Shown: positions 13,496 through 51,369 of the stretch, in pieces
Layout: every line of letters begins with the position of its first letter
Position numbering within the stretch: the stretch's first letter is position 1
The notes under the pieces: generated by a model
What the model saw: only the letters and a program-made list of their open reading frames with translations
The model's database searches: none
Told to the model about the DNA's origin: nothing
Origin: Amphiscolops sp. MND2022
Taxonomy: Eukaryota
Length of the DNA stretch: 64,000 bases
NCBI GenBank assembly: GCA_964187785.1
Contig: OZ076409.1
Span: 40,798,001-40,862,000 of the forward strand
Direction of reading: 5' to 3'
Position numbers and translations under genes: made by a program

Positions 13496-13501
13496 ATTTG
13501 A

Positions 13502-13745: not shown

Positions 13746-14284
13746 TCTAAAATTACCAAAGTAGCTCTCGAGCTGAAAAATACGTCTACAAACAATTTTG
13801 GATTTTTCGCTATTTGGGGTCAATTGAAATCAATTTTGGTTTTTTTTGTTAATCACTCTCTCTTGAAAACTCCATGTATCTCTACAAGGACGTATCCTAC
13901 GAAACAAAATTTCTGGTAGTTGAATTCTGTAGAGGAATATCTATCATACTTCAGGTAGAAGTTCCACAGTTCTTTCGGGTTGTCTGATAGGTTTTTCTGA
14001 ACTCAGTGATGAAACTGAAATGCTACCGCTGTTGTAAATCTAAAAGTTTTCAGTTATCATTCTCTGTTTTTGTTGTTTTTTTCAATGCCATTTGTTCAGC
14101 TGAAATGGAAATTGAAAACTAACGGAATTGATTTTTCATTCGCTGAAAACTGAAATAATGCTGCATTCAACTACCACAATAAAAAATTTTCTACTCACAT
14201 TTTTTCAAACACAATTTTTCATCAAAGGATTGTTTAAATGACTTCTCTAGTAGCATCAATGTAAAGCAAAAAGTAGTTAAAGCA

Positions 14285-21694: not shown

Positions 21695-21984
21695 CTGAAA
21701 TTACATCCAGATGACGTCATTTTTAGCAGCATGGCTGATATTCCCCTGTAAAACCACAGTGAGCTTTTTGAGTTTAGTCGGTTTTATTTGGAATCTTTGC
21801 GTAACAGCATTTGATACATCCAAATCAACTTGTTGAGAAACAAAATGGCCGAATTATGTCCATGGAAGCTGCAGTTTTCAAAACTCTATTTATAGGTTTG
21901 GACGATTGCGAATGAACACAGCGGGTCTTAACGTTTTTCTAACGGGGTTGACGAGACTAGATCCAGGGTACATTTCCATATTGG

Positions 21985-25751: not shown

Positions 25752-28120
25752 AACAAGACGGGAACATCTGAAGTCGGCGCTATACCTAAGGCTCAAAATG
25801 CGCCAAGTTTTGAAAATATGCTCAGGATGTTTATGAGAATTTCACAAAAAACTTCCAAACACCAAAAGAGTACTTTTGTGCTCGGAAAACTTGTTCCGAA
25901 GTTCGGATATAGCGTGTTGAGACAAATACGAGCGCTTGTTTTCGAACCTCCGCTTCCACCTTAGTAAAACGCAATATAGTTCGGATACAACGTTGAAATT
26001 TCAGTTGTAACGCAATCTTTTCGAGCCTCCACCTCCAAAATTCGGAGAGTATTGAAAATGAAATATTCGGTTGGATATCTATGTAAAAGGGGGACCCTTT
26101 GAGTTTTTTTACATCCGTTTTGTTGCAAAATATCAAAAAAATTCAAGGTGGACCTTCTGGAGACTTTTAAAAGCTTTCGAAAAAAAAACGAAAACTGAGA
26201 AGTTTGAACAGTGTTGTCACAGTGCCAAAAAATGTAAAAGGGGAGAGTCCTTGGGATTTTTTAACAATCATTATTTTGCAAAAAATCAAACAACTGGAAG
26301 GGGGACCCTTTGGAGATTCGGAGACATAAAAAAGTTTCGGAAAAAAACGAAGAAATGAGAGGGGCGACCTTTTGCTCTGCCTTAGATGCGTTTTTTCATT
26401 GGCCAGTCTTGGCCGGTACAGTAGTGTCGTAGGCGCCCGCCTGCGATGGCAACTGGTATTCGATTGCCTACAGTCATTACAACGCTCTCCTTCCCTGGTA
26501 CGATCCCCCTCGACTAGGGGAAGTGGACACGATGTCCAAAAGACAATATGAAACTAAAACTCATTTTCCACTTTAATATTATTTTACTGTTGCCATTAGT
26601 TTAGCATTAAAATTCGGCGCTATGAAGGAATAACTTTCATGTAGTTTAGTCCATTTGTACTGTTAAAACATGCAATCACTTTAATATAATTTCACATGTA
26701 ATTGTACGATGCGTTATTTGTAATTGGACACCAAGGCGTACCGGCAAAGGAAACGTGTTCAATTGTTTCTTTGCCTGCTGCCTTGGACAGCAAGTCCAAT
26801 GTGGATTTTAACCAATAAGAGTTGAGCATCTTTATTACTGTGCTACATGTGAATTTATATGAAGGCCGTACTCTGCCGTTCAACTAATCAAAGCGATGCA
26901 TTACGGCTATGGGACCACCGGTCCTAATCAAACCAATAAGATGAAAGTGTTGTGCTAATAGTTGAATATGGCCCTTATGGCCTGTGGTAAATCGTTGCCC
27001 ATTATATGTAGACATTGCAGGAAACTGCCCGCTTAACTTCGGATCGGACTTATTGTCCTTTCCCCCCTTAGCTTCATTTCCAATACACTCAATTTTGCAT
27101 ATACATGGTTTGTATAATTAATATGCATGTAACGTTGCTAGTATCTTTTGCGTACTTGTAATACTCTCTGTTTGTCGTTTTGTTATTTTACCCGCCATTC
27201 TCGGCGAGCATCATCTTTGAAGTTCTGACGTAACCTAATCTAAATATAGACGGAAATATTTTTAGCATCGGGTAATCTATTCGTGGAATCATGACCACGA
27301 ACTTTTCGATAGTCATGCAACTCGTACTATATATACCCGGGACTCGTTGCACAATTTGTAATACTCATTTGTTGCAACCTATCACATACTTGTTACTGTT
27401 TGTTTGCAAGCCTGAGACAATTCAAATCTTACCTCTTGCAATAGCCTCTTATGCCTTCCACAAGAAAGCAGAAAGCGAAAGCTAGAAAGTCAAGGGAAAT
27501 GGACATGATGTCCAATTTTGAAAAAATGGACGTTATGCTTGGAAATGATAACGCCAATGCAATTGAGCGAGAACTCGCAAATTCAATAAGAAACTCGGAA
27601 TATCTTTGTGACGCTGAGTCCAACTTACAGTCAAGAGAAAATGGCTCTCATGAAAATGATTTCCGACATTTTGGTCGATGAAAACATGATCCCCAGACAG
27701 GATAGGCTTCAGGAGACAATGGAAACTTTTAAACTTTTACCAGTGAGCTTAACATGAGACTTTCACAGGAAATGGACTCGATGATTTCCATGATACATAG
27801 CCAAATAAACAGAGCAATCAACACCGCTATAGCAGAAAGAGTAATTCCCGAGATTCAAAATATGGTCAGTTCGATGTCATCCTTAGGAAATCGGGACACC
27901 GAGTCCAGTTTGTCCCCTAAAGTCAGGAGAATACTGAAAGGAACAGTGGGTTTAAAACTAAAATTACAAAGAAGGACTCACGGTCTGCTTGTGACCTGAG
28001 AGCCCCTAGGGACTGTAGTCCTTACAAGTAGTTTAGTAGTTTCTGTAAAAATCCGACGAAAAAACGTGTCATTGTAATAGTCGGGCTTTTTTCTTTAAGG
28101 GAAAATGCGCCAACGAAAAA
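25752..28120 (-). mobile_element. HINE-like element split by a solo LTR
   Basis: Reverse 3' end at 25752 (AACAAGACGGGAAC...AAGTCGGCGC) and reverse 5' hairpin at 28075-28120. Confidence 0.7.
26425..28026 (+). mobile_element. Solo LTR, Gypsy family A (copy 3, divergent subfamily)
   Basis: TGTCGTAGGCGCCCGCCTGCGA start, ...CTTACA end, perfect TSD AGTAG (26420-26424, 28027-28031); TATA at 27328; ORF MPSTRKQKAKARKSREMDMMS at 27451. Confidence 0.87.
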
Positions 28121-29626
28121 TAGCTAGAAATGCAATGTTCGGAATCATCAAAAATGATTATAAGCTTTTCCTGTTTTTCACCGAACAGGGTTGGTAGTTG
28201 CCACGATTCAACTAGAATGAAGTGGAACCAAATACTTTCCTTTGAACATTCATTAGGGTGTGCAGGCAAAATTGCGTGCATGCAACTGCATGTGAGGTAA
28301 GTCTGTGATATTCAATTGACAAGACTTAATGCAACTATATAGGTTGAAACCCCGATTTCCCGAAAATGTAGACAATTGTATTTCAACCTATTAGTTTTCC
28401 ATTTTTTTTGGAATGTGGTGAAATTTTTACAGAGCTTCATGAAATATATTGAATACTAATCCCTCTCAATCAAGCTGGGGTTCCATTCTGTCTAGGCGTA
28501 TTCAGAGAGGCTGCACTTGTTCAAGATTCAGGTGATAAAATGAAATTCTCACACTAAATGGATTCGAAACAAAAATTTCGTCTTCCAAAAACAAAAACTG
28601 AAAAAAACCCAAAATTCTTTAAATGTTAGATCTGATTGATATTACATTTTTTGATAAAGGAAAAAAGATATTATGCAATTAGTATGATTCAATTTGAAAA
28701 CTTGAAAACCTTGGAATTGTTCTAGGTTGTAAACCCAAGATTCCGCCTGGCAGGAAGCAAAATTTCAAAAAGCAAAAAATTATATATTTTTCAAAATATT
28801 ATGTCATATTTATGTAACTATAGTTTAGATATTTTCGAAAAGATTCTGCTTGGTGAGTCTGTGCTCAATGAAGATCACATTCCACATTGGAGTATGAATG
28901 TAAAGGTTGGTTAGTCTCTTAGCTACCGAGCGAGCATTTGCACAAAAACTACTCGGCAATCACTACTTTCAACTTTCTTAAGGCGTACGTCACTTTTGCG
29001 TTTCCAGCTCCTTGCATCAATTATGTACAGTAAGTCATGTACACCTTACAGTAAGTCATGAACGATGGCAGTGCAAAAATCAATTGAATCTTACGCAAGG
29101 CAAAGAAGATTTCTTCCTATATGGAAACTAGAATCTAAAATCTGAACTTCGCACAATTCAATTAGGTTCTGGGTCACCCTCATTTTGACGGTATACACAT
29201 TGTAAAATTTTTATCGGAATCGCTGAGGTTCCAATTCAAGTTTTTTAGATCTTCGGGCAGTGAGTTCGAAACGGAAATGATGGGCTTGAAAATCAAAACT
29301 TTCATAATTTTTGTGACGGTGACGAAGTTGAAAGATCAAAGACGTTTAATCAAGGTGGTAAAATTTCCAATACCAGCAGTCCAAAGAGTCACGCGAAATC
29401 AGTTTGGCCGGACCATTCAAATAGTTAACCCGTGTCTAAGTTATTACCGTTCTTTTGTTTTAACAAATCAGAACCTTCCACAAAAACTGATTGCGAGTAA
29501 AGTGAGAAAGTCCCAGAATACCAATATAAATCGCAGGAAGCTGTAGTAAATCTGTTAATAACGAAAAGACTAAAATCATTTTCAGCAGAGAATGAAACAA
29601 GTTATCAGATGAAACCCTTGTTCTAC

Positions 29627-32600
29627 TTCTTGGTTAGGATAAGAAAACAAGATTTTCCGGGTTAACCTTTCTACTCAGTAAAGTATCTGTCAAAGTGAAA
29701 CGTTCTATACTATAGCTAAACAACGGTATCAAATGATGCGAACATAAAACAACATACGGACACATTGTTTATGAACACAACAAAAACATCATGTGATTCT
29801 AATCTAGCTTGTTAGGTCTGTTTCGATCAAAGTTCGAATGACAGCTTCACCGGAAGAATCTGTCCGGTATGAACACCGTATAACATTCCGCCCCCTTCTG
29901 TACACCGGCTTCGGTAGGTTGAAAGAAAAGTTTGGAGTGTTCCTTTGAGATTACTCCATTTTTCGCCTGTAACATTTAATTTTCTTGTTTTCATACCCAA
30001 AAATTTCGAGTGTATGTAATCCCCCGTATCTATTCGGTTGTTTACTTTCAAGGTTTGACCGTCTGACTTTTTTGTTTTCGGTTCTTATATCTTCTGTTTT
30101 TATCTCACCTAAATTTGATTTGCCGTCCGTGTGAAGATTCAATTCATCTTCGGTAGATGTCGTGATTGGTCGGTAGCAGCCGTTTGCTTCGAAGGTGTCG
30201 TGATTTTCAAAATCATTTTCTTCGTCTTCTATTTTCCCCTCTTCGCTTTCGGAATCGGATTCCGTACTTTTATTTTGAACGATTTTTAGCTTCCTGTTCA
30301 GTACATCTCTCAGAATTTCGTTCCATTGTATGTACTTGCCATCGACCCCTCGGAAATAGTGTCGGTTCTTTGGAGTTATTGTGTCTCCGATTTTTGGTGC
30401 TGCTTTTCTTTCTTTCTGAAATGTTAACGGAGCAGAAAAAAAATCGGTTTATTACTTTTCCGGTATCGGTGGACATTCATCGGTCATTGGTCATTTGTCA
30501 TCTTTGTAGCCCCGGCATGTAGCAAGTTGAGTACTGTACCATAAGTAGAGTATCTAATAGCTCTCTTCTCGGTTCAGTTGGTACAGTTATCTGGTCTTCA
30601 TTGAAGGTCAGGCCCCACTTACATGAAATTTTTCAATGGTCGGTCTGTATGTCTCCGGAGCCGTGTTTTCCTCACCTCGTCTCATTGCGTACCTTACTCG
30701 GTTCAATTCGGCGTCAGTTCCGGATTTGGTAATTAGGGATTTTATGTCGAGCATGAAGCTACAAATGGCCTTTTTGATCCTGTATTCTGTAGTTTTTCTG
30801 TCTTCCGTCATTTTAGCAATAACTTGATTCATTTGAATGAATTGGGCATCTTTTCCGTCGGTGTTAAAGGCCTTTAGGTCGACAATTGGGGAGTTGTCGC
30901 CTTGAATTGCTTGGCTTTCGCCTTCATTTTCCAGTTCCTTTTCTTCCGCCATGCCCGACTGTTGTTGGTTTTCTTCTTCTTCTATTCGGTCTTCTAGTGA
31001 TTGGTAGTCCCCACCAAATCTATTGGCCCGCGTTAAAAGTTCTCCATCAATTTCCACAATCTCCGCCCGTCTTCTTTTTTTTGTCTGGAGGTTACCCAGA
31101 GTTGCCGTTGCGTGTTCTTGTCAATTTTTCGGTGCATTGTTTCCGGCCTTGACATTTCCAATCTCCTTTCATTGAGTCTGAGGGATTCTGTGCTCTTTCG
31201 TCTTCGTTTTATAATTTCCAAAATTTCGGCCGTGGCGCCCCGGTGGAAATAACTTCGATCCATTTCTATCTAAGGTGGTGGTTATTTTTAAGAATTGTTT
31301 GAACTTGAAGTTAAATTTCGGACTGTACTTTCCATTTTAAACATTTCTCGGCGTTTCATTGGTGTGAATTTCGCTTGTTCGCGGTTTTTGTTCACGTCTC
31401 GGTTTTACAATTTGATTGATAGTCGGTTTTTGCTTCAGTTGTTTTGTTTATTTCCGGCGCATTTCTGATTGGTGAACGAATAATCGTTCGTATTTGACGT
31501 TTATTTCGACATGTTTTGACAGAAAATTAATTACGTATTGTTCATCGTATACGTCTTCGGTTTTTGCTTTTTCTACCGTATTTCTACTTAGAATGTCGGT
31601 AAATTTTACGGTACTTCCTGCAACGTGTTGGATGGCTATTCAAAGTGTGCGATCCTATCTAGCAACCTAGTTGGTGTCGCGCTAATTTGTTAATTATATC
31701 GGTTTAGTTTGATCAATGGTTCAAGCTCTTAGTGGATTATGTACAGAAAGACTCCCATTCCATATAAAATAGGAACGGAACTTTTTCTAAGCTCCGAACG
31801 ACTGCCATTATTTTTATTTCTTCAATTGAATAATGTTTTGCACTTTAAATATAATATCTGCTGCCTAATGCTATCGGTTTTCTTTCTCTATCCCTACTGT
31901 TTTTGCCATAATGTAATTCCAAGTTCAATTTCACTTGCGTCGGGTGTTACGATGTTATCACTATCTTTTGCCTAATGTACTAGGCAAGGCTTTTTGGTTT
32001 GCAGCTTTGTTATATTGTTGAGATCCTTGTCTTGTGCTCTCCCCGAATTCCATTTTGAATCCTTCTCTTGGAGGTTTTGTAGTCTTTCAGTTCTTACCGA
32101 TATTCTCGGTATGAACTTTGTGAGATATTGTTTTGCACCGAGAACTGATTTCAATTGCTTTTGGTTTTCCGGGTGCTTCAGTTCCAGGATTGGCTTTACC
32201 TTCTCTGTGTTCGGTGTGTTTCCCGTTTCATCAAATTCGTGTCCCAACCATTTGTCTTGTTTAGAAAAAATTCGGATTTCTTTTTGCTTGCTCGTTATCT
32301 TGAGCTCGGTATTTTTTTCAGCAAGCCAAATAGTTTTATCTCGTGGTCTGTCCTGTCTCTTCTTGTAACCACTATTATATTCTCAAGCCAAGCCGGTGTG
32401 GAATTGTCTAAAAATTTTTGAATCGAGTAATATCTACTGAAATTCCCCCTGTTAGTGCAAACACATATTGTCGGCTCGTTTCGATAATCTCATTTGGCCG
32501 TAGGCGTAATCTAAATCGATTTTTCTATCATCAGTTCTTTTGTTCGGTCTCTTGTAATTTCTACCGAAACCTGGTTCAACAATTCCTCTATGTTTGGCAT

Positions 32601-34450
32601 ATGTGGTCTGTTTTTTCACACAGCTGTTGTTGTTCATTTTTTAGTCTAATTCAATTTTCGCCGACTTATCGTTTTATCGTAGTAATTATTGAGTACTACA
32701 GGAGAAACAAAACAATCTTCATCAACATGTCTTTTTTTTCTAGGTGTCCGGTTTTAGTTGGTTTCTCCAACTCTCTACCGACTTCTCCTTGTGGGTGTAA
32801 TGGGATTGGTCTTGCTTTCCGTTTTACTGGATAAAATCCCGGTTTTAATTGAATATTGATTTCGATGTCTTTTATTGTACTGCTAGTATTGAACAGATCA
32901 GGAAACTTTTCTCAAACACTCGCTTCTTTTTTGATTGGTTGTTACCGTCCCATCGGATGTTTCTGGTTGTTAAGTTGAACTTCTTCATCCAGCCCAATCC
33001 GAGTAGTGGTGTTATTTTATCTCTTTCGGTAATCAATGTTTGCATTTTTGTTTGTTATTTCCGTATTCAATGTCTATCGATATTTGTCCGCGAAAGTAAA
33101 CTTCATTTTATTGACGTCTTGGTATCAGTGTTTCACTGAATTGCTGTTTTCTTCAAGATATTGTTTTCTGTCCGTAATTTTGTTGAAATCGGGGATCCGG
33201 TATCAACTATAAATTCATTCTCAAGGCCGTTTATTTTCACTTTTACTGTCAAGTATTTGTTTCTGTCGGTGATTCTGTCTATCTTTTCAATTCCTAAAAT
33301 ACTCGATTCTGATTCGTCGGACTCTCCGCTAATTGTCGTTGTTTCTTCTTCGGTTACATTTCGCACTTTGCGTTTGTAATTTTCTCTTTGTCTGCATACT
33401 CTGGCAAAGTGTCCATTCTTCCCGCAATTGTTGCAGAGTCTATCCAATGTCGGACATTTATGAGTTGGGTTCTCATTTGGTGGGTTGAAGAAGTTACACG
33501 GTTTGTCATTTATCTTTTTTTTTCGTTCTTATTCTGAATCGTTCTGTTTTTGTATTGGTTCTTTTTGCTTTTTCTTGGTTTCAGATTAAAGCTTCCGGTG
33601 TTGTATTTTTTTGGTTTTCTCTTTCGTATGCATTTTGTTTGACCTATTGAAGTGTTTTCTTCAAATCTTCAGTTTCTTCTCTTTCATGATTTATCTCGGA
33701 GTTTTTTATGTGTAACTGTTGTCATAATGTTTGAAATAAGTAAATCTTCGGCTGCTTATCTTTCAATTGCACATTCTTTTTCGATTTCTATCAATCTCCG
33801 CCAGAAGTCTTCCGGTGTCTCGGTTTCAGTCTGTTTTGTACCGAAGAGATCTCCGCCATTATGTTAGGTGTTTTTTTTCGTTAAAAAGTATTCAATGAAT
33901 AGTCGGATAAGATCTTTCACTGCTCTATTAACGGGTTTGGTTTTATATTCTACCAGTGTCATCTAGTACACTGCTTCGAGGACTATGCCCCATAAAAATT
34001 TCTCTTGTAATTCAGCAACTTTATGGGTCGGTGCAACCGTTTTGTCATTTCAGCTCCCCGTATTAGTTCGGTAATATCGAGTTTGTATTTTCTCTTTGTG
34101 TATTGCCGAAATTTTCTGAGCCATTGTTACCGTGTGAACATTCTCTTCCCCTCTGAAGTGGCTTCGAGATTCGGTACTTCAATCTGTTTTGCCTCTTGTG
34201 TTATTGTGTTTGTTCCACTAAAATTTAGCAGTTAATTAAAATTGCTGACTGCGCTGGGTTCCATTTCTTGGTTAGGATAAGAAAACAACGTTTTTTGAAT
34301 CAGAATTTTTTACTCAGTAAAGTATCTGCCAAAGTGAAACGATCTATACTATAGCTAAACAACGTTATCGACTGATGCGATCATTCAACAACATACGAAC
34401 ACTCTGTTTACAAACACAACATAAATATAATTTGATTCAAATCTAGCTTG
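29627..34450 (-). mobile_element. Decayed Ty3/Gypsy retrotransposon, family B, with diverged terminal direct repeats
   Basis: ~185-bp direct repeats 29627-29811 and 34265-34450; minus-strand TGG just inside the right repeat (PBS-like); Zn knuckle CNNCGKNGHFARVC, protease FIVDTGSPIS, RT IDLDYAYGQM, RNase H remnants; integrase core mostly deleted. Confidence 0.85.
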
Positions 34451-34779
34451 ATACGCTGCTCCACAAATGTTTCCATACCACTTTAAAACATGTTACTTTT
34501 CAAATTTGATCAATTGTGGCTCACATTTTTCGCTACTTTCCGGAAGTTACCTGCCAAAATTTTGATTGTAAAACCTAGTTATTTCACACAATTATCGCAT
34601 CGGATTAAACGTTCATTTGCTAGTTTTTCAAAATGCACAGCAAAGAAATAGATGATTTATTTGATTTATCAAAACAAACATTAAGTGAAGGAACCCTTAC
34701 AAAAAAAACCAGAAGATCTCAGTTTATCGAAAGCTACAGCACAGTACATGATCAATAACGACTACAACCGAAAGAAATG

Positions 34780-37286: not shown

Positions 37287-38357
37287 TGTCGCAGGCTGCC
37301 GCCTGTGACGGTACCCGAATAACAACATCAACGCTCGCACAGGTACCCTACCTACATACTGAAACAAAACTTAGACCAAAACCTAATTTATCATTTTTTA
37401 GTATTTCCAATATGTTTTGTTGTGTTATATTATTAGTCTGTTGACATTTGAATGTTCCTTAATTTATCATTTTTCAGTATTCCCAACATGTTTTGTTGTG
37501 GTATATTATTAGTCTGTTAACATTTGAATGTTCCCTTTTTGAATGTTAACATTTTTGAAAGGTTCCCATCCATAACCGTCCAAATTCCTCCACCCCTTTG
37601 ATGAACGTTAACTTGATGATATTGGAATTTGATACTCGTTTAAATGTTGATTTGTTGACACTGAAAAATGTAAGTGTCATTCCCCTGAAGGTATATATAG
37701 CAGTAACACCCTCGGGGTGGAAACAATTTTCCGAACTATTTTGTGTTCAAGACGTTTATAAAAGTTCAATTTTCCGATAAAATAATTCAATAATTCCCAT
37801 CGGGTTTTCTTCATGCCTTCTAAGAGAAAACAGAAAAGTAAGGCAAGAAAGTCAAAAGAAGGTGATATGCTATACTACATTGAAAATTTATATATAATGT
37901 TAGGCAGTAATCGCCTAGAGAGAGAAGAGTGTGAATTTAGTAACTTTGTCAGTAGACCTGAAAGTCCTAGCTACAATGCTTTTGTGAATCATTACGTGAA
38001 TTCTCACTCTGGAGAAGATGAGATAAGGCGTTATGCTGAAAACGGCCAGAATTCAAGAAATGCTGACCCGAAAAGAGAGATATAAACCAAAGAATCACTC
38101 AAGTGATGAATGACCTTATGTGTAGCGTGAGCACACAAATGCAAAGAGCCATAAACGAGGCTATAAGTGAACATGTTCTGCCTCAGATTGAAGCTACCTT
38201 GAGGTCCGGACCAGCACGATTTCTTGATAGAAGGTGGGAAGTCCCGGCTAGAAGACCGTAATGTAGGTCTGAAAAAAAACGCAAATTCAGAAGCAGTTCT
38301 AGAGATAACGCCCCAGAGTTTCCAACAGGAATGAAGATCTAGAGAACACTCATTACA
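37287..38357 (+). mobile_element. 5' LTR of Gypsy family A (copy 4)
   Basis: TGTCGCAGGCTGCCGCCTGTGAC start; ends ...CTCATTACA at the position where the solo copies end; internal 76-bp tandem duplication (~37382-37534); TATA ~37692; ORF MPSKRKQKSKARKSK at 37813. Confidence 0.85.
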
Positions 38358-41300
38358 TGGTGACAGGAGACAACGAGTCTCCAAAACCTGTTCCCGAGTT
38401 TCTTACGGGACACATCCCGCCACGAACGGTAGTCAACTACTCTACTTCTGATCACAATGATTCCCTTGATGCCACATTGCCTGCTCTAGAACAAGATCCT
38501 CCGATGACCGTACAAGACCCAAATCACAGACTAGTCGATGTATTGACTACTATACAGAACCGACCCTCAGCTCAACAGCCACTAACTATCTGTTCAAACA
38601 ACTCTTCTGCGATGACCTTTGAGAGAAAAAAAAGAAAAACTTGAACTTTTTGAGAATCTTTTTCATACAATGATCAAATTGCAACCGGAGATGTCGGAGC
38701 AGATGAAATGTATTCATTTTCATTCACTCCTCCGCAAAGGGGCACTACAAACATTCCGGAATATCGACACAAGCAACAGACAAACTCTCGAAGATTTGTT
38801 TGTAATCTTCAGACGGAAATACGTTAAACTCGCGTCCTATGCGAGGGCCAGACAAATGGCACCATCTGATCTTTGACCCCAACACAATGAAACTACCAGA
38901 TTTTCTCGCGGAGTTGAATCAAGGGGCAGAAAAGCATTCGGAGATTTTGCCCAAAGCTTGATCGACAGTCTCCTCTATGCGGAATTACCCTCAAACTTAA
39001 GAGATCAGATAACATGGCTCGTCTTGAGAATGGTTCGTACGCCGAATTTGTTGTCCATCCTGAGATGGAAGCCCAAAAACTTTCTCTCCAGCGAACTACT
39101 CAGTGACACCGTCTGCAACTATTGCAAGGAAAAAGGTCATATGGTCAAGGACTGTGAAAAACTCAAAACAAAAAAGGAGAAGGATGCCCAAAAGGGCTCT
39201 AGCCAATTCAAAAGAAAACATACGCTAAGTGTGGGACTTGTGGCAAGACAAATCACCCCGAGGAACGAAATTGGCAAGGTGCAGAAGCACATCTCAAGCC
39301 TAAACGTATTAGGCCCGAAGTCTCATTCGATAGCAATCCGGAATAAAAAAGCGCCCAAATCCCACCATAGCTCCACATCGTCCAGCTCTCAGTCTGCATC
39401 ACAAAAGGACCACTGAAAAAAAACTAATTTTGCCACGACTCCAACACAACCATCAGGTATCAGTCCGACAATATGTCAGATTTGATTCTCCAAACAAAAT
39501 TTTCCATAAATATCAACAACAATTGATGGAGTATCCCTCTGTTGTACGGCAGCAACATATGGAGAAAGCAACTCTCATTACATAAAACAACACCGATTTG
39601 TATCAAAAACCACTTCCTATTTGAGATCCTGATTACACTACAAACTTCACTACCCGATTCGGGCCCATTCCCCTCATTGAGAATTACAATCCAACGTACA
39701 TCGATCCAGACAAAAGCAGAGATCTCTTTTGGGACACTGAAACTTATAACCAAGACTTGCTCCAATTTCAGCAAGTTCTGAACGATATTGAACTCTACCA
39801 GAGAACAGTCCATGAGAATCCTCTAATAATCCATAACAAGAAAACACGGGCACTCATCGGAATTTGGCAAATGAATGATGGCATACCCATTCGGTCTTTC
39901 CGAATCTTTTTGGATCTGAGAACAATGAGTCTGCAACATACAAAACTCCCCAGTCCCTATTAGACAAAAACAATTTTAAAATGTGCTAGTCCCCAAGGTG
40001 GGTGAACCCGACTGTATACCCCTCTGTACCAATATCAACCTCATATACAAAAAAGCATGCTGTACTTCCTGATGGACTTTGGGGAACTAACCATAGACAG
40101 CCTAATCGGCAATGGTGCCTTATCCAGCGCAAATCCTGAAATGGACCTCAGGAAAATTCGCTCACTTTCTCCACAATCAAATATCCAAAAAGGGTCTACT
40201 CCAAACTTCCCAATAATGGTGGCTAATGGACAATTACAAACCCCTAACGGTACCATTGAATTGAAATTCGAGGTTGGTGATATCGAGTTTCATAAAATCT
40301 CCATTGTAATGGAGAACCTAACGGACCTCCTATTGGATTATGGGTCCTTCAGAGGAGTCATACAGTTTTGGAGATGAGACAAGGCATTTACACTTCCCAT
40401 TTTTTTCGATGCTGCTCAAGACAGCTGATCATCGGTACTTTAACGTCCTTGAACCTATTCTCATAATGTCTGAAATCACCATTCCACCAAACGATCGAGT
40501 CCTAAACAGGACAAATTCTCAAATCTATCCTAATGAAACTTCTGTCACTAGGATTGTGCAGCCCAGTGACCGTTTGCCTGAAGAAGGAGATATCATCCTC
40601 TGTTCAGCAATAGTTACCCTAAACGAAAGCAAGATTCAGAGATCAGTATCAAACTCAAAAAAAGCTGCATATTGCCAGTTTTCTGTCATGACACCGGAAG
40701 AAATGCAGTGTGAAACCAATTGACCCAGCATCAACTTGGTATGTATTACATAACGACCTGGAGCATGCTGCCCATTGTGTCAACAGTCTCATTAGAAAGA
40801 ACAAAAACCCTCAAAACTCCGAAAAACATTAGTTTGTTACTCCAAAAAACACCGAAAACCCGAGGAACATACGACTATCCAGAAAAAGATCCTAGATGAG
40901 TAGCAAGCCTTACAAGACGCGGAGACACTCAACCCCACAAAAGATGAAGAATCCAGGAGGAAAATCCTAGGAAACTTTGACTGGAAGGACTCCACCCTAG
41001 CGCCCGATGAAATTGCGCGAATTGAACTATTATTTGTGGAATTCCATGACATTTTCAACCGACACCGATTCGACATCGGCATGAATGAGGAATTCAAGGT
41101 GAAATTAACACCCAGGTACGCTTCCTCAGCGTATAGCCAAAGTTTTCTAGGGCCAATCGACCTTAAAGATGACATACTCGTCGAATTGGCCATACTAAAC
41201 AGATATGCTATAATTACAACTCTTTCATTTTTAAAACATGCCAGCCCAATATTTGCGCAGAAAAAACTAACGTCGATTATTAGTAGACTTGAGAAAAATG

Positions 41301-43850
41301 AATAACCTAATTTCGGACGCATATGTAAATAAAAATCACCCTGTTAGCACTTCTGCTGATGCTGCCCAGCACAGATGCAGCCGATGCTGCTGATGCTGCC
41401 CAACAAAAATTTTTTCTGTAAAATGGACTGTTCACAGGCATACCACTGCCTACAGATGACCAACCAGCGCTCAATGAAGATGATGGCATTTAACTTTGCC
41501 AGCCGCACAGCTGCGTACACACGTTTGGCCCAAGGCTTGAGCCGGGCACTTTCCGCATTTTCCAGTTATATTAGAGAATACCTTGATAACGTCATCAAGG
41601 CGGAACAATGTGCTCAGTATGTGGACGACATCGACATCGGAGCCAATGGCGCCGACCACCTCATCGCAAACCTGAGAGTAACTTTCAAGTGCATCCAGGA
41701 GGCAGGCCTTAAACTCACAATGCATAAATGCCACTTCTGGGCAACGGAAATTGACTTCGTCGGACGAACCATCACTCCCCAAAGCGTGAAACCCCAGAAG
41801 CAAAAATTCAGAAGTTTCTCGGAAAAACTAATTTCCCGAAGTCGAGAAAGGCTTTACAACGTTATTCGGGAATTCTGAATTATTACCGCAACTACGTCCT
41901 GAGACTGTTCAAACACCTACAAGATGCTCAAAAGTGACAAAAAAGTACTATTATGTAATGAATTGATTCAACAATTTGAGGAAATCAATAAAGCCCTTGG
42001 CAAATGTTGCGATCTAGCTCTCCAGCAGCGGCTTCCTAAAAAACAAGTCACTCTGATGACGGACGCCAGTTTTGCCGCTGCCGGACATGCAGTCCTCATA
42101 AAGATCCTAACCAGAAACTTACCTCACTCCGCAAATCATATACCCCAGTGACTTTTGGATCCAAAACTTTCACCCCAGACCAGATCAAGATGTCCTATAC
42201 ACAAAAAATTCCTTGCAATGTATTTTGCATTCAAGGAATTCCGGCATATTCTCTGGGAGCGCCCAAACCGGTCATCATCTTCACCGACAATAAATTTATA
42301 ACGCGATTCTTCGAGACACAGATCGTTCCCCAAGCCCTGTGGAACGCTTGTGACTATTTCGTACAATTAAATTTTGTCATACCCCACATACGAGACCCAG
42401 CAATCTCTCGATGAAACCGGAAATGTGAAATACTATCAACCGCAACTTTCACTGCAGGAAATGCTTCATGAGACAGCGCACAAGCAACCTGGTATATCGA
42501 AGATAATGCGAGAAACTTCACAAAAGCTCTATTGCCCTAGCATAGCGAAACACGTCAAAAAGGGGGAAGAAGGGTGTCAACAATGCGCAGAGGACAAGCA
42601 AGTCCCTAATGACAACGATCTTGCCTGAACTTCTCAACTTGCCGAAATGGCACCTTGGACTCCAAGACGCTATGCAAATTGACCTTTTGCCGAATCTCCC
42701 ACCACGTGGAGGATGTGAAAACGTAGTTAGAGCTATTGATGAGTTCTCACCTTACTTATTCGCGTATCTTCTTTAGATGCGTCAGCGATCAACGTGGCGA
42801 AGGTTCTCATTGACATCATAACTAAGCTCAAATATTTACCGACAACATTGATTACTGAGAAAGGAACTGCATTTACCTCCACAAGTTTTGCGGAAATTAC
42901 ACAACTTATTGTGGAACAACCAAACATCCGCAAACAATTGGGAAACTCGAACAAACACATGCGTCTTTCAAGACTAACCGCAAAATGGCATGCGAAAAAT
43001 ATCGCCGACAATGGCATAAATACTTGCCCCTTGCAGTTCTAAACCACAATACGAGCTTCTACGCGAGTATTGGCTGCGAACCAACACAGGTATTCTATGG
43101 TTTAGCACCATACAATCTTTGGATCACAAGGTTGGAAATAACCCAAACGAGCGGATTACTCATACAACCGAATTTTTTCCGAAGAAAATAAAAATCGGAA
43201 AAAACTGCTCATCGACGAAACCAAGCAAAACATCATGCACTCCTATCTCAAATATAAGGAGTTTTACGAACGTAAATCAAGAGCAGCTCCACTTAAGGGG
43301 AGTGATCACTGTTTTGTACTGCAACCTAAAGCGGATCATCAAGGGTCGCAAATCTTTTTTCGGGATTACTGTTGGGTGGGCCCGTTCATAGTACAAAAGA
43401 TTTTACCCAACGGAAACTATAAAATACGCCGACTCAAAACGAATAAAACGCAGATACTACGTTGCATCAGACTCAAAATACTTGTTCCCAATCAACCATT
43501 TGAAGATAGATTACGTGAAGGAAAATTACAGCAGGATGAAGAAATTATCATTCCGCAATGCGATCTTCACACGATAGCCTGGGAAGCAGACTTTGGTGAG
43601 CAACCAGAGTCACGCGGCAACGCGCCGGATCCGACTCATTTGCCGAGCGGTAAACAACCGGTTACGACAAAGGGCGAGCCAAGTGACGCAGACGAAGACG
43701 AATATATTACATAACGACGAGAGACAGTCTGCAAGACATCAACGAGACGCCGCAGCGGCGAAGAGAAGTACTGAACGAGCCCTAGAGAATGAAAACATAA
43801 CTTCAGGCCCAATCCCAACTCAAACTACTCAGAGGACTTCAGATACTAAA
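38357..43850 (+). pseudogene. Gypsy family A gag-pol (frameshifted): Gag-ZnK-PR-RT-RNaseH-IN
   Basis: CNYCKEKGHMVKDC knuckle; degenerate protease site (LIGNGA); RT MDCSQAYH, QGLS, YVDD (41618-41629); RNase H TDAS; integrase H..PG...CQQC, KGTAFTS, WVGPF; domain order is Ty3/Gypsy. No 3' LTR found. Confidence 0.92.
38358..38372 (+). promoter_or_regulatory. Primer-binding site (TGGTGACAGGAG...)
   Basis: TGG immediately after the LTR-terminal CA; cognate tRNA not determined. Confidence 0.7.
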
Positions 43851-44083
43851 AGAATTGAATTGCGCCCACAATTGAGCGTCTCTTTCTTTCCTTTTTTCCC
43901 CTTTTTTCAGGTCCCTCTTCAGTAGTTTTCGAATAAATTTGGTGACTTCACAAGTAATTCCTCTTAAAATAAGTATGAGGATTAGAAATTATGAAGGAAC
44001 AACATGTGAGCAAAGAAGATTCAATGGTTTGAAAAGTATCGGCGAAGTTTACAATCTGAGTTTACCTAAAAACATTTGTTCAC

Positions 44084-45310
44084 TTAAGATTTAGAAGGAC
44101 CTGGTGTGGGCTCCCCGGCTACTGAAGAGGTAGTTGACTGGGACTTACTCCTCTCAATTTTCCGTCGCTTGCTACCACTCGGTACGTTCAAGGCTGATTC
44201 GTCAGCAACTGAGGAATCCTCTTTGACATCTTTTCGCAAGGAACTCCCTTTGGGCCCAAATAGGACTGATCGATAGGAAGACAACTGCGACTTGTAGATC
44301 TTGTAGATCCTTGACCAACCGAACATTTAAACGCTTTCCCAAGGATCATAAGTCGAGGAGAAGGCATTCCGGCCGAAAGAGTCAGGGAGGAGAGAAAAGC
44401 TGGCAAGATCAGCATCACTTCTTCAGAGGGTGACAGACCCGTGAACCCCAGACAGGTAGCTTTATCCAGGCAAAATGACGTCGGTAAACCGATCTCGATA
44501 TTCTGAAGTATCGATGCTCTCTACGTTTACTGCTGGATATGTAAGGCTAACTGACATGATGCATAGGCAACACAAGTTGAACAAATAAAGGAGGTGCTCT
44601 CGTGTCTGCTGGAGTTCAAGAATCACCATAAAATCTATCAGGTCTCGTGCAGCATCCGTGACGTGTAAATTTGGACGAAAATTGGCCCGGAGATAGTCCA
44701 GAAGCTCGACATACTCGTTTCGGCACGCAGACTCGTTTGCGGCAATAACCCAAGACTGGCGCTGGAACGTGCTGTACAGCATGTCGAAGTGCCGAAGAGC
44801 CACCTCAGTAGGACGCATGAACATAATATAGGGGTCGAAGGCAGCCAATCCCTTGACTATTTTGGAACTGAGTCCAGTCTGGCGCAGAGCCTCACAAAAT
44901 CAGGTACTATATATACACAGTCCATCCTGGACGAACTCGGATTTGATGGTGTCGGCCGTCTTCTGAATTAAGGCTCGGTCCACTCTTTTGCCTGAATGGA
45001 CACCTTCTGTTTTCTGCTTACTGGCAGCAGAGACTTTGTTCGTCGTCATGTTGAAGCGGATGAGAAACTCCTCGCCTGTCATGAAACTTCCCTCCCTAGT
45101 GCGGAAGCCCAAAAGGACGAACCATGAGTTTTCAAGAGGGATGATATCGGACGTGTAGCATCTGATGCACAGACGGTATACGAATCTGGAGACCTCGCCA
45201 CAGAGGTAAAACGATGCATCGCGTCTTTGGTGCATTTTGATGGAGAAATTGGAGTTATCTGCAAACGAGGAAATTGGCCGAACCCGGATCTTAAAAGGAC
45301 ACCTAGACAC
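44084..45310 (-). pseudogene. Decayed ~400-codon ORF of unknown function, antisense to pol
   Basis: ORFs 44900..45310, 44462..44848 and 44084..44326 share one frame, separated by stops; protein-like composition with a basic KRRK tail. Confidence 0.55.
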
Positions 45311-46010
45311 CTAGAACCTAGAACTATAATATACTAACAGTCCCTGACTAGCCGGTGGAAAAATTCCAGTTTGACGAGGAAGCACTCATCTCAGATGAGC
45401 GACCACTCGAAACTCTGCACCTAAACAGGAAGAATCAGAGTGTGATAACAGAAACCTGCCTAGAATAACTTTGAAACCTACAGTAAAATATGGCCTGATA
45501 TGACTACTTTCACTAGTTCTGACACCTTCTCCTTGTTGATGTGGTGCATGCAAGGAAAAGAACCCCAACACAGACTTTCATTTGTCAATTAGCTCCTGGC
45601 AAAGAACGGGTAGAGTCAAAAAATCCAGTTTGCAATTGGCAATAGCCTAAACGGAATGTCCTACATAGATCACTAGTCAATGGCTAGAACCCCACTGTTT
45701 TCCTCTTACTATGGAAGTGTTGAAGAATACTTACTCGAGCAAACGCAGAACTTCGATGGACCCAGTCTTCTGAGAGAGATCCTCCCAAAGAGACATTACA
45801 GTGCCAAAAGTGGGTCTTTTGAATTTTTGCAGTGGAATTCGATGGACGGCAGTTTTGGAAAGCGTGCAGCTAGATATGTTAGTGGAATCCAAACAGGCTA
45901 CAGCGGAATCCTTTGAAAACCAGTGAAAGGCATGTCTAATATTACGTCAGTGGATTTTTGTGATTTAATAGTCTAAAATCGTGCTATCCCACTTTTGGCA
46001 CTGTAATGGA

Positions 46011-47635
46011 TCACCAACTCTCGTAACGTAGAAAAGAATTCGATGTGGCTGAAGACACTATAGCTGGACTTGTGCCAAATCCAACTGCTTCAAGCGGAAT
46101 CACCTCTCGACACCTCCAGAGCATGCCACAACGTCCGCCTTGGTAGAGACGACTGACACTAAACAGGACAACGACACCAACTCTCCTGTCAGTTCCGTGG
46201 CTGGCAACCCTCTTCGGCAAATGAGGAGCCTACAGAGATCTTGACCTTTTCAAAAACGAAGCGACATGAAGCGGTTGGAACTTATATCCTCAAATTCAAT
46301 GGCGAAACACTGTTACGCTATATCTGCCAGGGCACAGTTGAAGAAGTGCTGGAATTTGGCCAGGGAAGGAAACAAGGTTTGAGAACTGACCAAGTTCGTG
46401 ATAGTTAGCCTTATAAAGTGAAACTTACCGTCATGCGTTCTTCGCCTGAATCAAAATCGCAGAGGCTGGCTTAGTGGTCGGTAATGGAGCTGATCCTCGG
46501 CCACAAATTCCGTAAAACAGAGAAAATTCCTTGGGTCTGGATAAAGTCTCCCACAATGCAAAGTTGGGTTTTGGACCGGGACTCAGGAGTGATTGAGGCA
46601 GTTGTTCGGTTTTTGACGGAAACGTCGTAGAAGGGGAACTTCTATCCAATATCGACGAGTTCCGCATGGATAACCTTGTGCAACACCTTGGCTAGTTCAA
46701 TCTTGCTGAAGAAGATTTTTCGCCTCCGACCACGTACCCTGTGATGCACTTTTTTGGTGACCGGGTCAGTGCTCTTAAGTTGTTTTTATCGCCACCTTTG
46801 ATCTCGTCCGAGGGGCTTCGATGGGGGATTTTGATGGTGCCCTTCGTTCGATTGAAATATTTTTCTTGCAATAGTGACACCACACCATATAAAGATTGTG
46901 GAGTGGGTCAGCAGGGCCAGAGATGAACAATCGAGTCCCACCCAATCTTACCGAAAAATTCTTCGCGCATGGGGACTCCGCGCTGGGGTATCCGTTTGCC
47001 CTTTTTGGGCGTCTTGGTCCTGACAGTAACTTGAGATTTCTCCTCCAAAGTCTGTTCCTTCACTTCGAGCAGGGTGGCGTCCTGACAACTTTATTCAGTT
47101 GTCACAGGATCCTTCTTTGCTGGGCCAGTTGCCTGAGTAGAAGTGGTTGGGTTAGTGCTCCTTGTCTTCTTGAAGGACTCTGAAATGAGAGCCGTCTCTC
47201 CTGCACAGTCACTTTACCTGACTGAAGAGGAATCTCCAAGCTCTCCGAAATCAGTTGAATCATGAGCTTCGGACACAGCAGCTGGTAAACCTCCGGATTC
47301 AGCGTCACTTGAATCGCTTTCCTGGATTCGAAGGGCGTTGAAGCTCCGCCTACTCCGGAAGTGATCAGTCATTGATGGGACGGTTGTCGCTTTCACTTTA
47401 AGCTACTAGATCGATAGTCGGACCTTTGGGCATCCGCTTGAACTCTTGTGGTTGACGAATCAAGTCCTTCTTCCGGCTGTATTTGTTTTGATTCGATGCG
47501 CTGCACCAAAGCCTCGGCAAAGGCGTACTCGTCGGGCTCACTGTATGCACTGCGGGGTGAATCAACTGTTCTGGCTAAACTCTGGGGTTCCTGGAGTTGT
47601 TCCAAAGCAGTGGCTGGTTGGTCACTCGTGGACAT
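46011..47635 (-). pseudogene. Second decayed antisense ORF (Ser/acidic N-terminus)
   Basis: MSTSDQP... at 47635, frameshift at ~47395, then ORFs 47214..47396, 46692..46883, 46431..46667 and 46011..46220 all in one frame. Confidence 0.5.
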
Positions 47636-48447
47636 GTTTACTGTAGCCGTAATGTCAGTTGATTCCTTCTCTAAATAAAAAGAGATGAAAATTGGCGGTA
47701 CGCTTCCTCGAAAAGAATCCATTTTACCGCATTCGAAATCTTCCACCGGAAGTGTCAAATGATTCAACCACAACGAGTTAGCACGTGAATTATGATGGAA
47801 ATAGGATGCAAACGTGACCAAAACAGACCTTGATCAAGTTGAATTTGTTCAACAGTAATCGGAAATTCAAACCAACCTGAGTTCGAAGACCTCTTGCTGA
47901 ACTGGGGTCCCTCGGGAGAGATCCTTTCAGGGACAGTTGGGAAGAGTTTGGAGGACAACTCCGGTTGATAGCAGGAAAGATCATAAGGTGACACTCTAAT
48001 GGAGCAGAGGTTAATGGAAAATGTGGAAACGTTCGGAAGATGAAGTGGAAATTAAGATAAATCATTTAGAACGAGAGTTAGAAGAGATTACAAAAAAGAA
48101 ATAATGGAATTGAGAAGTAAAAGTTGGAGTTCGTGACCTACGAAATAAATAAGACTAATATTTTACTTTGGTTATTTACATTGTGAAAAAAGTACATGGA
48201 GTCTGCCAGCGAAGTGTACAAGATTTTCTTCAATATTTACAACTTAGTTAGCCAAAGCGTTACATGGCCGTTTTCCTTCGTTTCGTTCTACCGAATTTCA
48301 TTATTCATTCTTTAATTCTATCAACGGATGAATTTGATTGGCCAAGGCCATTTTGGAAAGGTATGGGACGCGCCCCGTTAATTGCCCTTTTCAGTCAAGT
48401 TTATTTGATGACAACATCTCGAAAGCTTCTCACACCTCTCTAGAAGT

Positions 48448-48795
48448 GGGTGGCTGTAAATAGGTCGAAATTTTCTGGTCGAAAGGACAGAGGTCGAACC
48501 TTTGTTCGAATTGCAGGGATCGAGTGGAATGTGGTCGACTTTTATCGTATTTGTTGTATGGCTCGGTCGCTTCGCTCCCTTCGCCAAGTAGCAACATTGA
48601 GGCATGGCCATATGGCACGTCGCTCCGCTTCGCTTCGCTCCTGCATTCAGGGCACTAGGGGTATGTGAACATATCTGACTACGTTATGAAAATTTCGATC
48701 CCAGTTGTTTCGATCCCATTCAAAAATTTGGTTTGTCGACCTGATGACTAACTCTGATTTTCGATCCCGTTCCTTCGACCTACTTCCGCCCACCC
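48448..48795. mobile_element. Mutator/foldback-like MITE
   Basis: Termini GGGTGG/CCACCC, arms with GGTCGAA/TTCGACC motifs, 9-bp TSD TCTAGAAGT (48439-48447, 48796-48804). Confidence 0.75.
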
Positions 48796-48930
48796 TCTAG
48801 AAGTGAGTGGTGATAGGGGGAAGAGTACGCCTTTGATCTAATTGATTGGGTCTAATGGAATTAGATCTAACTGTTAGGTCTAACTTTCAGATCTGATTTT
48901 ATCTAAACTACTTAGGTCTAACCCTTTTAT

Positions 48931-49191
48931 GGGATTGCATGAAATGGGTCGAATGAAATAGGTCGAAAAGAATTAGGTCGACCCTTTTGGTCGAATAACT
49001 TAGGTCGAATTGACTGAGGTCGAATTGGGTCGAATGGACTTGGGTCGAAATCAATATGTTGTCTCCCTTGAACTTGGCATTTTTCAAGGTCAACCCAAGT
49101 CCATTCGACCCAATTCCGAAATGGTGAAGATTCGACCCATGGCACAGGAGGCCGATTCGACCCATTTCTTTCGACCCATTTCCGTTCACCC
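48931..49191. mobile_element. Mutator/foldback-like MITE (GGTCGAA arms)
   Basis: GAAATGGGTCGAA ... TTCGACCCATTTC; periodic GGTCGAA left and TTCGACC right; flanking direct repeat CCCTTTTAT(G). Confidence 0.7.
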
Positions 49192-49473
49192 CCTTTTATG
49201 ATCTAAAATGTGTTCTGAAAGCGAAAATATAATGTGGGACATATGCGATGTATGCACGCTCGCCCTCACCGTCGAAAAGACCAGCTCCCACTACGATCGT
49301 TTCGCGATCCCCGTTCCCGCTAGGTCTTTGCTCGGCGGTGGGCGTTTGGATCGAATGAATTTGCGCGAATATGCAATCTGTCACTGAGATCGAAGTAAAA
49401 TGGTCAAAGAAAATGAGATCGAATCCATGTTTTCAAATACCTAGCGTTTTCAAATAACAATGTTTTTGGCCGT

Positions 49474-49906
49474 CGGATATGCCCCCCATTTCCTCTAATG
49501 CCCCGCGGCCCCTTGGGGCCGCTTATGTTCCCATCTTGCTAAGCGAGGTCGAACAGGAGCAAAGACCTAGCGGAAACGGAGATCGCGAAGCGATCGTAAG
49601 GGGAGCTGGTCCTTGCGACGGTGAGGGCGAGCGTGCATACACCGTATATGATCCCATATTAGGTGGGGAAAACTACCTAAATAATTTTAAACGCTTTTAA
49701 ACACTTTACAGGAGCAGAAACCTAGCAAAACCGGAAAAGTTCGATCTCATAACCTTCGATCCATTTTCGATCTCGCTTTTCGCTCACACAAAAATTCGAT
49801 CCAAAAATACCCCACCCTTTGCTCCTGTTCGACCTCGCTTGGCAAGATGGGAATATAAGCGACCCCAAGGGGCCGCGGTGTACTAGAGGAAATGGCGACA
49901 TATCCG
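49474..49906. mobile_element. MITE with ~90-bp TIRs
   Basis: 49474-49565 (CGGATATG...CCCATCTTGCTAAGCGAGGTCGAACAGGAGCAAAG) is the reverse complement of 49817-49906. Confidence 0.7.
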
Positions 49907-51369
49907 AGGCACGTTTTATACTTTATATCATTTTTTAGTTGTAGATCCCAATTGACTTATTTTTTCTCAAATTAGATCAAATTAGAAGAGATTTTCAGAC
50001 CTGGTTATTTAGATCAATATATTTAGATCTCAGTTTTGCCCCCTCTCTCGGGTCTATTTCATTAGACCTGATTCCACGTGGCCACAGGGGGTACACAAAC
50101 TGATTTCAAATGCCCCGTTAGGAAAAGAATTCCATTCAAGAATTCTATTGCTAATTTAACGATGAATTCAGGAAAAACTCGTCGTGTATATTTTTGTCAA
50201 ACTTTTCTCAGAAGGTTGGATGATAAAAACATGTACTGGTTCTCAACGAGTGCTACAATTTTGGCAGACTGAATCATTTTTTCAAGAGATAGAACCATAA
50301 TGCGCATCCAGTTTTTCAACAGTTCCGATAACTTTTCCAGTTCTTGTATTTTCTTTTCCAATGCGTCTGCCTGCGTTTTCGGGCCGAGGTGTGAACCAGG
50401 AATGATAAGTTCACCTTTCGTTGTTGTTTTGATCTCGGGCAGATTTTTTGGAAAGATGTTGAAGCTGTCGATCGCCGTTTTTCAGTGGTCTTTTTTGAAG
50501 CCAAACGTTATGGGTAATGTAATTGCTCACTTGGCTCAATGTCTTTTGGTTTAACGCATTTAACCAGTTGGCCTACTCTTTCAAAGCCAATTATCTCGGA
50601 TACTGGTCACTTGGCTCAAAATCACGAAGTTGAAAATACGTGGCAAATTTTGTCCAAATAAGTTTTATAACGTAGTCGATAATGTTCACCTAACCCTAGA
50701 GCCCTAAATGCAGGAGCGAAAAGGAGCGACGTGCCATATGTTCATGCCTCAATATTGCTACCTGGCTAGTGAAGCTACTACAACATTCATTCTCAACGTT
50801 TTGTAGTTTTTTTCGTTTCTTGGCCTTTTCTTTAAACTTCAATTCTGTTTAGTCTATGATGAGTTGTCTTTTAAATTAGTGAAAAGGTGAACAAATGTGT
50901 GAATTAAAAGCTTTTCGAACATAATAGTTCATCATCAGTAATCTGAAAGAGCCTCGAATAGGGTAATAAGTATTAGGAATGAAAAATGGAAGAATCAAAC
51001 CTGATGAAATGACAGGTACTGTCGAACAAGACGCCCGCTAAGCACCGGGATATTTTCCGCTCCTTTGACCTTCAACTGGGCCATAGCTATTTTGAGAGGG
51101 GGGATTTTTAGATCATAGCTATTTTAGATCTTATTCCTGTCCTGAAATTTTATATCTTATTCCCTTTAGATCTCATTCCCTGTTTTTACTTTAGATATTA
51201 TCCCTCTTCTAAGCTAAGTGAGTGAGAGAGTGTAGGTAGAGAACAGTGAATGAAGTGAAGAGTCGATTTATGGCGGAATTTGGGGAAAACGCATCACAGA
51301 TAATGAAAATAACAAATCAATTAGCTAAATTAGCTTTGATTGAAAAGCATAGTTGAATGCGTGCTGCCG

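Follow-up and report, generated by a model that had tools for sequence, protein, structure and literature searches.

In Ty1, approximately a dozen codons of Gag are located inside the long terminal repeat (LTR). PMC4974528 places the start of Ty1 Gag upstream of the primer-binding site (PBS; nucleotides 94-104 of the RNA), so that the PBS lies within the GAG open reading frame (ORF), and the same text describes the PBS segment of Ty3 as adjoining the 5′ untranslated region, outside GAG. Here we describe a 64,000-nucleotide (nt) stretch of the genome of Amphiscolops sp. MND2022 (assembly GCA_964187785.1, contig OZ076409.1, positions 40,798,001 to 40,862,000), referred to below as the window. 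It contains four related LTRs which, very probably, represent an animal Ty3/gypsy family whose Gag starts approx. 586 nt inside the 5′ LTR. The element resembles Ty1 in that Gag begins in the LTR and the PBS is placed inside the Gag coding sequence. However, the overlap is short in Ty1, whereas it comprises 195 codons with a selected helix in this element; unlike in Ty3, a third of Gag is LTR-coded.

LTRs are usually taken as regulatory, noncoding ends and solo LTRs as dead remnants, while the LTR of this family appears to contain a selected protein module. Other LTR-located ORFs are HIV nef, MMTV sag and HTLV HBZ. As here, their coding sequences are doubled at both ends of the element, but they lie in U3 (the part of the LTR upstream of the transcription start) or in antisense and serve as accessory genes used from the 3′ end, whereas the frame described here lies past the TATA box and constitutes Gag's own start. 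In the literature covered, which included passages of PMC3286476, PMC8278194, PMC7175516, PMC9911081, PMC6431247, PMC5408684 and PMC3601003 (Repbase and most subscription journals fall outside this coverage), we found no Gag domain of such size reported as being LTR-coded; it is rather unlikely, by our estimate, that an earlier description exists. The proteins of this family may resemble acoel sequences; the text covered of the S. roscoffensis genome paper gives LTR abundance and not element anatomy.

The LTR copies, their frames and the adjoining PBS are located as follows.

122-1882, minus strand: LTR copy 1, a solo LTR with the target-site duplication (TSD) TCAAG on both sides and a TATA box near 845
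From 707 to the LTR end, minus strand: ORF of copy 1, 195 codons plus 1 nt, with an in-frame stop at 351-353
4569-6240, minus strand: LTR copy 2, 3′ end at 4569 set by homology; sister subfamily of copy 4
From 5145, minus strand: ORF of copy 2, decayed
26425-28026, plus strand: LTR copy 3, a solo LTR with the TSD AGTAG on both sides and a TATA box near 27328; most diverged subfamily
From 27451, plus strand: ORF of copy 3, decayed
37287-38357, plus strand: LTR copy 4, the 5′ LTR of an element, 1071 bp, TG...CA, starting with TGTCG
37692-37699, plus strand: TATA box of copy 4, 121 nt upstream of the ATG
37813-38357, plus strand: LTR-coded N-terminal part of Gag in copy 4, corresponding to residues 1-195 in the intact relatives, with a broken frame
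38358-38369, plus strand: PBS, within the gag frame (codons 196-199)

The reading frame was established from relatives of the LTR peptide. The peptide of copy 1, with X at its stop, was used as a query against ENA records and matched 229 relatives of at least 343 amino acids (aa); most of the 120 listed are 563-570 aa long. Most of these longer proteins share the basic head at the start and then the PBS-coded motif at residue 196. The junction motif (M/I/V-V-T-G) was recognized in 113 of the 120, at residue 196 in 93, at residue 190 in 15 and at another position in 5; in the remaining 7 the pattern was unmatched. The LTR frame therefore agrees with that of gag, and the claim of the original prediction that the LTR encodes the start of Gag is borne out by 195 residues in frame with Gags of 570 aa. 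The LTR peptide thus constitutes the first third of Gag: in the intact relatives, an uninterrupted frame of 570 aa begins at the LTR ATG, crosses the PBS and extends into the capsid-like and zinc-knuckle regions. A profile search yielded 799 representatives (mostly short fragments among the 150 listed), and no related loci were found in metagenome and viral contigs. For 37287-44000, neither a sequencing run nor an RNA holder was listed, which has no bearing on expression.

The same query matched 893 shorter relatives (107-342 aa), which are clusters at 90% identity and in part not full LTR ORFs. We examined 119 of them: 92 carried a non-Gag tail after residue 195 or its equivalent (one of these is a diverged Gag continuation), 13 went on as Gag, and 14 stopped sooner or failed to align. 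As only the first base (A) of codon 196 belongs to the LTR, the first tail residue is restricted to I, M, T, N, K, S or R. This was the case in 92/92 tails; for the second tail residue the count was 44/89, with a background share of 0.39. The end of the LTR is thus fixed independently of the window copies, and truncated copies of the ORF are read in these records wherever an LTR meets host DNA.

The LTR end has no conserved stop codon, and the tails are near the length expected of random flanks (median 18 vs 15, p=0.06; 86 tails, second pattern), as expected if selection acts on the fused protein. In proteins P0193-P0311, the composition of the first tail position is uneven (T 25, N 24, S 16, R 12, I 9, K 4 and M 2) and the second position is rich in N, Y, C, R and W, which hints at a target-site preference.

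When truncated ORFs and full Gags on equal-sized contigs were compared, 8 of the 18 pairs had an identity of 97% or more in the LTR part, including 5 without any difference, as against 8 of 600 random pairs. Such similarity would be expected if the two forms belonged to the two LTRs (3′ and 5′) of a single element; the remaining 10 pairs probably reflect independent insertions located on long contigs. The proposal that a full element carries two copies of the domain is supported by pairs of this kind among the relatives and not by copy 4, for which no 3′ LTR was found within the window.

Within the window, the LTR ends agree with those originally proposed. Copies 1 and 3 are bordered by perfect 5-bp TSDs, and the CA end of copy 4 (38357) is directly followed by TGGTGACAGGAG, the PBS, a 12-mer with a single match in the window when up to one mismatch is allowed. 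Codon 196 (ATG) consists of the last A of the LTR and the TG of the PBS. The TGG-initial motif adjoins the LTR end, and the window contains no tRNA gene for comparison; the primer may be tRNA Leu.

The four LTRs are diverged subfamilies and do not form one family of near-identical repeats. The DNA identity is approx. 58-67% among copies 1, 2 and 4, and copy 3 matches the others over only approx. 100 nt. Copy 4 is short, with approx. 600 nt of U3 absent (the other copies have 1.6-1.8 kb), and carries a 75-bp tandem duplication (37384-37534). The 5′ end of copy 2 is probably the fragment 9238-9293, separated from the remainder by an insertion; only 3/5 bases of its TSD agree. The block at 6247-9293, seemingly inserted between copy 2 and its 5′ end at 9293, carries a 1.3-kb tandem duplication of 99% identity (6741-8034 / 7975-9268).

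The anatomy of the four copies is nevertheless uniform. The distance from the TATA box to the ATG is 138, 121, 123 and 121 nt in copies 1-4, in accordance with the 120-140 nt given earlier, GTCAT is present upstream of the TATA box in 4/4 copies, and the interval between the TATA box and the ORF start is ATG-free in all of them. From the ATG to the LTR end there are 586, 577, 576 and 545 nt, which corresponds well to the predicted approx. 550 nt of coding LTR. No poly(A) signal is common to all copies (only copies 2 and 4 have ATTAAA/TATAAA, at -55/-56).

The statement that the ORF is open to the LTR end in all four copies had to be abandoned. Compared with natural intact Gag, the frame is broken in 4/4 window copies: by one stop in copy 1, three frameshifts and one stop in copy 2, one stop and one frameshift in copy 3, and, in copy 4, by a stop at 38259 flanked by frameshifts near 38083 and 38328. 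The reading of copy 4 through the PBS is in frame for the last codons, as proposed, but the frame upstream of them is interrupted. A 570-aa relative aligned by tblastn to copy 4 with its first 164 residues at 37813-38273 and the remainder at 38345-39340.

The LTR-coded part bears the mark of selection on its protein product. In a protein-guided codon comparison of the window copies, the proportion of nonsynonymous differences (pN) was below that of synonymous ones (pS) in 6/6 pairs, which speaks against a dN/dS near 1. Since protein-guided alignment favours amino-acid matches, the test was repeated on DNA-only alignments. An ungapped comparison starting at the ATG reached significance in only 2/6 pairs, because copies 1 and 2 differ from copies 3 and 4 by one codon and are hence out of register; with anchored ungapped blocks, a third-position excess (p<0.05) was found in 8/9 comparisons. 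In the DNA-only alignments, the mismatch by codon position was 0.27/0.28/0.46 for copies 1 and 2, 0.34/0.28/0.47 for copies 1 and 4, and 0.40/0.21/0.52 for copies 1 and 3, while the U3 control was flat (0.36/0.35/0.37) and a short second control gave 0.47/0.31/0.34. In the helix block, 12/22 and 11/19 identical residues are encoded by differing codons. As third codon positions diverge most, these comparisons show purifying selection on the LTR peptide, namely on the blocks of residues 1-30 and approx. 91-160.

The same blocks stand out among the relatives. In 80 full-length proteins among the 120 listed Gags, mean identity was 0.70 for residues 1-195 and 0.93 for residues 196-570; within the LTR-coded part it was 0.94/0.91 for residues 1-30, 0.84 for residues 91-145, and 0.58 and 0.41 for the linkers. 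Turnover of LTR subfamilies would thereby be tied to turnover of a protein (70% identity in the LTR part vs 93% in the remaining Gag).

The predicted combination of a basic and a helical domain was recovered. Residues 1-14 carry a net charge of +7, and AlphaFold2 predicts a single helix at residues 84-143 (pLDDT 86-98 at residues 91-140, low confidence elsewhere), with linkers on both sides that are probably disordered. The hydrophobic residues of the helix are spaced 3-4-4, by eye an 11-residue coiled-coil pattern. A three-copy model of residues 78-150 of one relative (P0199) scored 0.73, as compared with 0.01 for the best of 3 controls, and passed in 2/3 runs (which share at least 64% of contacts, with partner pLDDT of at least 53). 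The score mark was reached by 21/30 solved pairs and 0/23 single chains (microbes), and by 7/16 animal pairs. The models support self-association of the helix, in a copy number that they do not fix. Searches for similar proteins gave little: in Pfam the LTR peptide has no match at the cut-off (Zw10_N, E 0.07, and YpjP on the helix are below it), the best ESM Atlas score (0.76) is below use, Foldseek with the single-helix model returned 0 matches, and no solved structure was matched in the PDB.

Taken together, the observations are best explained by the following course of events. Transcription would start approx. 25-30 nt past the TATA box and ribosomes would initiate at the first ATG, giving Gag an extra N-terminal module. 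The basic head of this module could act in RNA binding or nuclear import, the 60-residue amphipathic helix would probably oligomerise as a coiled coil, aiding particle assembly, and a frameshift at the A-rich sequence 39418-39424 would probably lead into pol. With the PBS in the coding sequence, translation and priming would share one stretch of RNA, and the minus-strand strong-stop DNA would be approx. 700 nt long; both would be constraints on reverse transcription. The module may have arisen by (i) recruitment of U5 (the end of the LTR adjoining the PBS), by which a Gag formerly starting at the junction ATG was extended in frame, or (ii) a shift of the LTR end and PBS into gag.

In reverse transcription, a single 5′ template gives rise to both LTRs; therefore, neither the second ORF copy in the 3′ LTR nor intact frames in solo LTRs need a function. 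That the LTR end has no stop speaks for the fused Gag as the selected product, and the truncated forms with host-coded tails would be by-products, whether expressed or not. It is possible, though doubtful, that the LTR-only product is functional as well, i.e. that solo and 3′ LTRs are minigenes encoding a truncated Gag, which associates with full Gag via the helix and limits assembly. Such copy-number control, scaling with the number of LTRs, would add to an LTR-started Gag and not replace it. Many truncated ORFs are intact among the relatives, a TATA box and an ATG are kept in each solo LTR of the window, the helix is modelled as self-associating, and Ty1 is restricted by a truncated Gag through lattice poisoning, according to PMC13709905. 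However, young age and reverse transcription suffice to explain the intact frames and the identity to the 5′ copy, the tails appear random and a fixed stop is absent, and the frame is interrupted in 3/3 solo or orphan LTRs of the window. Moreover, Ty1 p22 and Drt2 act by the capsid C-terminal domain, which the fragment does not have: it ends at residue 195, and the capsid-like match begins at 280. By analogy, the fragments could resemble Ty1 p22/p18 and Drt2 as element-derived truncated Gags that might poison assembly. PMC13709905 describes the latter as capsid C-terminal fragments, derived from an internal promoter or one domesticated locus, whereas those considered here would comprise the N-terminal third, be present in every LTR and have random tails. 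A dominant-negative role like that of p22 is plausible, via a different interface, if the fragments are expressed. We consider it similarly doubtful that every solo or 3′ LTR is an expressed minigene, whose self-associating fragment brakes copy number and whose insertions fuse promoter, head and coiled coil to host sequence; if true, the LTR would have a built-in copy-number brake and be a standing source of new chimeric genes.

It is improbable that most Gag is started at the junction ATG (residue 196; 375 aa, an ordinary size), with the LTR-started form as a minor long isoform. Met196 is present in 58/59 of the 570-aa Gags, and the capsid-like region (280-358) and the knuckles lie entirely downstream of it. 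However, CA|TGG forces a methionine at this position, which makes its conservation uninformative, and the sole TATA box common to the four copies is upstream of the first ATG. In addition, five well-conserved in-frame ATGs (28, 109, 112, 113 and 141) precede residue 196, and leaky scanning to it is therefore unlikely. Conservation due to DNA or RNA signals in R/U5, the transcribed part of the LTR (packaging, strand transfer), with the frame merely kept open, would agree with linkers evolving near neutrality and with the general knowledge that LTR ends carry cis signals, but it has been largely refuted, and is very improbable, given codon-phased divergence, a U3 without phase and identical residues often encoded by different codons. 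Finally, the 'solo LTRs' could be internally deleted elements and the true LTR shorter, given the considerable length of 1.6-1.8 kb and the absence from the window of any element with two LTRs. This has next to no likelihood: in 4/4 copies the end falls on the base preceding the PBS, the two solo copies have perfect TSDs, and 92 independent relatives (92/92 truncated forms) break at the same codon and base.

An LTR-started Gag remains our preferred explanation, and several points weigh against it. The case is built from sequence and structure models. Synonymous sites are near saturation in the window copies, which makes dN/dS qualitative only, in several pairs the linkers have pN close to pS, and the anchored blocks were picked on conserved motifs in pairs that are not independent. 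Co-location of truncated and full forms rests on equal contig sizes, with 10/18 pairs below 97% identity, and the relatives come from an automatic gene caller, biased to open frames. Among them there is no full-length Gag of the copy-4 subfamily, the nearest being partial ORFs of 50-62% identity. As regards the helix, the third complex run scored 0.01, calibration was with two copies only, three copies being the analyst's choice, and the mark was reached by 1/7 eukaryotic pairs without an older solved relative, so that a pass may reflect a generic coiled coil.

If Gag does start in the LTR, recombination between LTRs would leave a promoter-plus-ORF unit, and hundreds of such ORFs are intact. 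With this family, it could be tested directly whether an animal retrotransposon is under the control of truncated Gag produced by solo LTRs. Annotation would be affected as well, with gene counts inflated by false 'host genes' and LTR annotation misled.

The remainder of the element in which copy 4 is the 5′ LTR was assigned as follows.

38358-39427, plus strand: internal part of gag with a linker, capsid-like region and two CCHC knuckles, decayed
39430-43714, plus strand: pol, decayed
Approx. 39800-40320, plus strand: protease
41360-41878, plus strand: reverse transcriptase (RT), RVT_1 E 1e-16
42040-42414, plus strand: RNase H, RT_RNaseH E 8e-4, below cut-off
43142-43714, plus strand: integrase C-terminus, Integrase_p58_C E 0.024, below cut-off
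44090-45265, minus strand: antisense ORF after pol, decayed here; some relatives align up to 45577
45600-47833, minus strand: decayed GC-richer stretch with ORF remnants, e.g. 47393-47833

Judged by its LTR ends, TSD, Gag and pol order, the element is of the Ty3/gypsy type, with which it shares TG...CA LTRs, a 5-bp TSD, a PBS adjoining the LTR, a CCHC Gag and a separate pol. The pol order is protease-RT-RNase H-integrase (the integrase being placed by its C-terminus only), in contrast to protease-integrase-RT in Ty1. The end of gag contains the A-rich, slippery-like site at 39418-39424, followed by a stop. DUF1759 (residues 280-358, capsid-like) was above the cut-off in 2/8 Gags; zf-CCHC was below it (E 0.003-0.009) in 7/8, with PDB matches to retroviral nucleocapsid. 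The PDB search with the RT gave 8 matches, including Ty3 RT (4ol8, E 3e-6), 8r0s and foamy-virus Pol. Downstream of gag-pol of copy 4 there are four purine runs, none of them ahead of an LTR start.

Two other assignments were rejected. BEL/Pao elements are characterized by a Peptidase_A17-type RNase H region and three cysteine-histidine boxes; here, the RNase H piece matches RT_RNaseH and not Peptidase_A17, there are two knuckles, and the only Pao-leaning match is DUF1759. Ty1/copia was ruled out, as the integrase C-terminus comes after RNase H. A weak dUTPase-like stretch was noted between protease and RT (40388-40720, plus strand; Pfam E 0.036 on a relative, no PDB support); bdelloid LTR elements have a dUTPase, according to PMC5408684.

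The antisense ORF has 212 relatives, and many of the 120 listed are intact and 380-440 aa long. It was present on 7/14 contigs of one Gag cluster (6/7 being 97-99% alike), and from this co-occurrence it probably belongs to the element as a constant component. According to PMC7264820, Grande, RIRE2 and Retand similarly have a conserved antisense ORF after pol, before the 3′ LTR, and Retand ORF4 has a transposase-28 domain; these are, however, plant elements, whereas the protein found here has no Pfam match at the cut-off. Its ESM Atlas matches are hAT-dimerisation-domain proteins (0.90-0.92, low feature sharing), which provides no more than a lead towards hAT-transposase-like proteins. The tail of the protein is basic and serine-rich, no transmembrane segment was detected in the 3 relatives scanned, and its single-sequence fold had a pLDDT of 35. 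The adjacent stretch at 45600-47833 is probably part of the element and perhaps a second antisense gene; a 146-aa piece of it had no Pfam match.

Elsewhere in the window, decayed pieces of a second LTR retrotransposon family are present at 11978-13516 and 29000-34500 (minus strand), with CCHC and protease matches at 33136-33528. Two long frames were found on the plus strand: 14183-16840, an amiloride-sensitive (ENaC-type) channel of 885 aa from stop to stop with LDLa and CUB domains inside, and 56953-61884, an uninterrupted 1643-aa ARID-domain protein that we take to be ARID2-like. These two frames mark the window as animal DNA. A frame at 20997-21716 (minus strand) has a Death-domain match below the cut-off (E 8e-4). 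Nested inverted repeats of 90-110 bp and 85-90% identity at 48583-50766 probably represent a foldback element or one resembling a miniature inverted-repeat transposable element (MITE).

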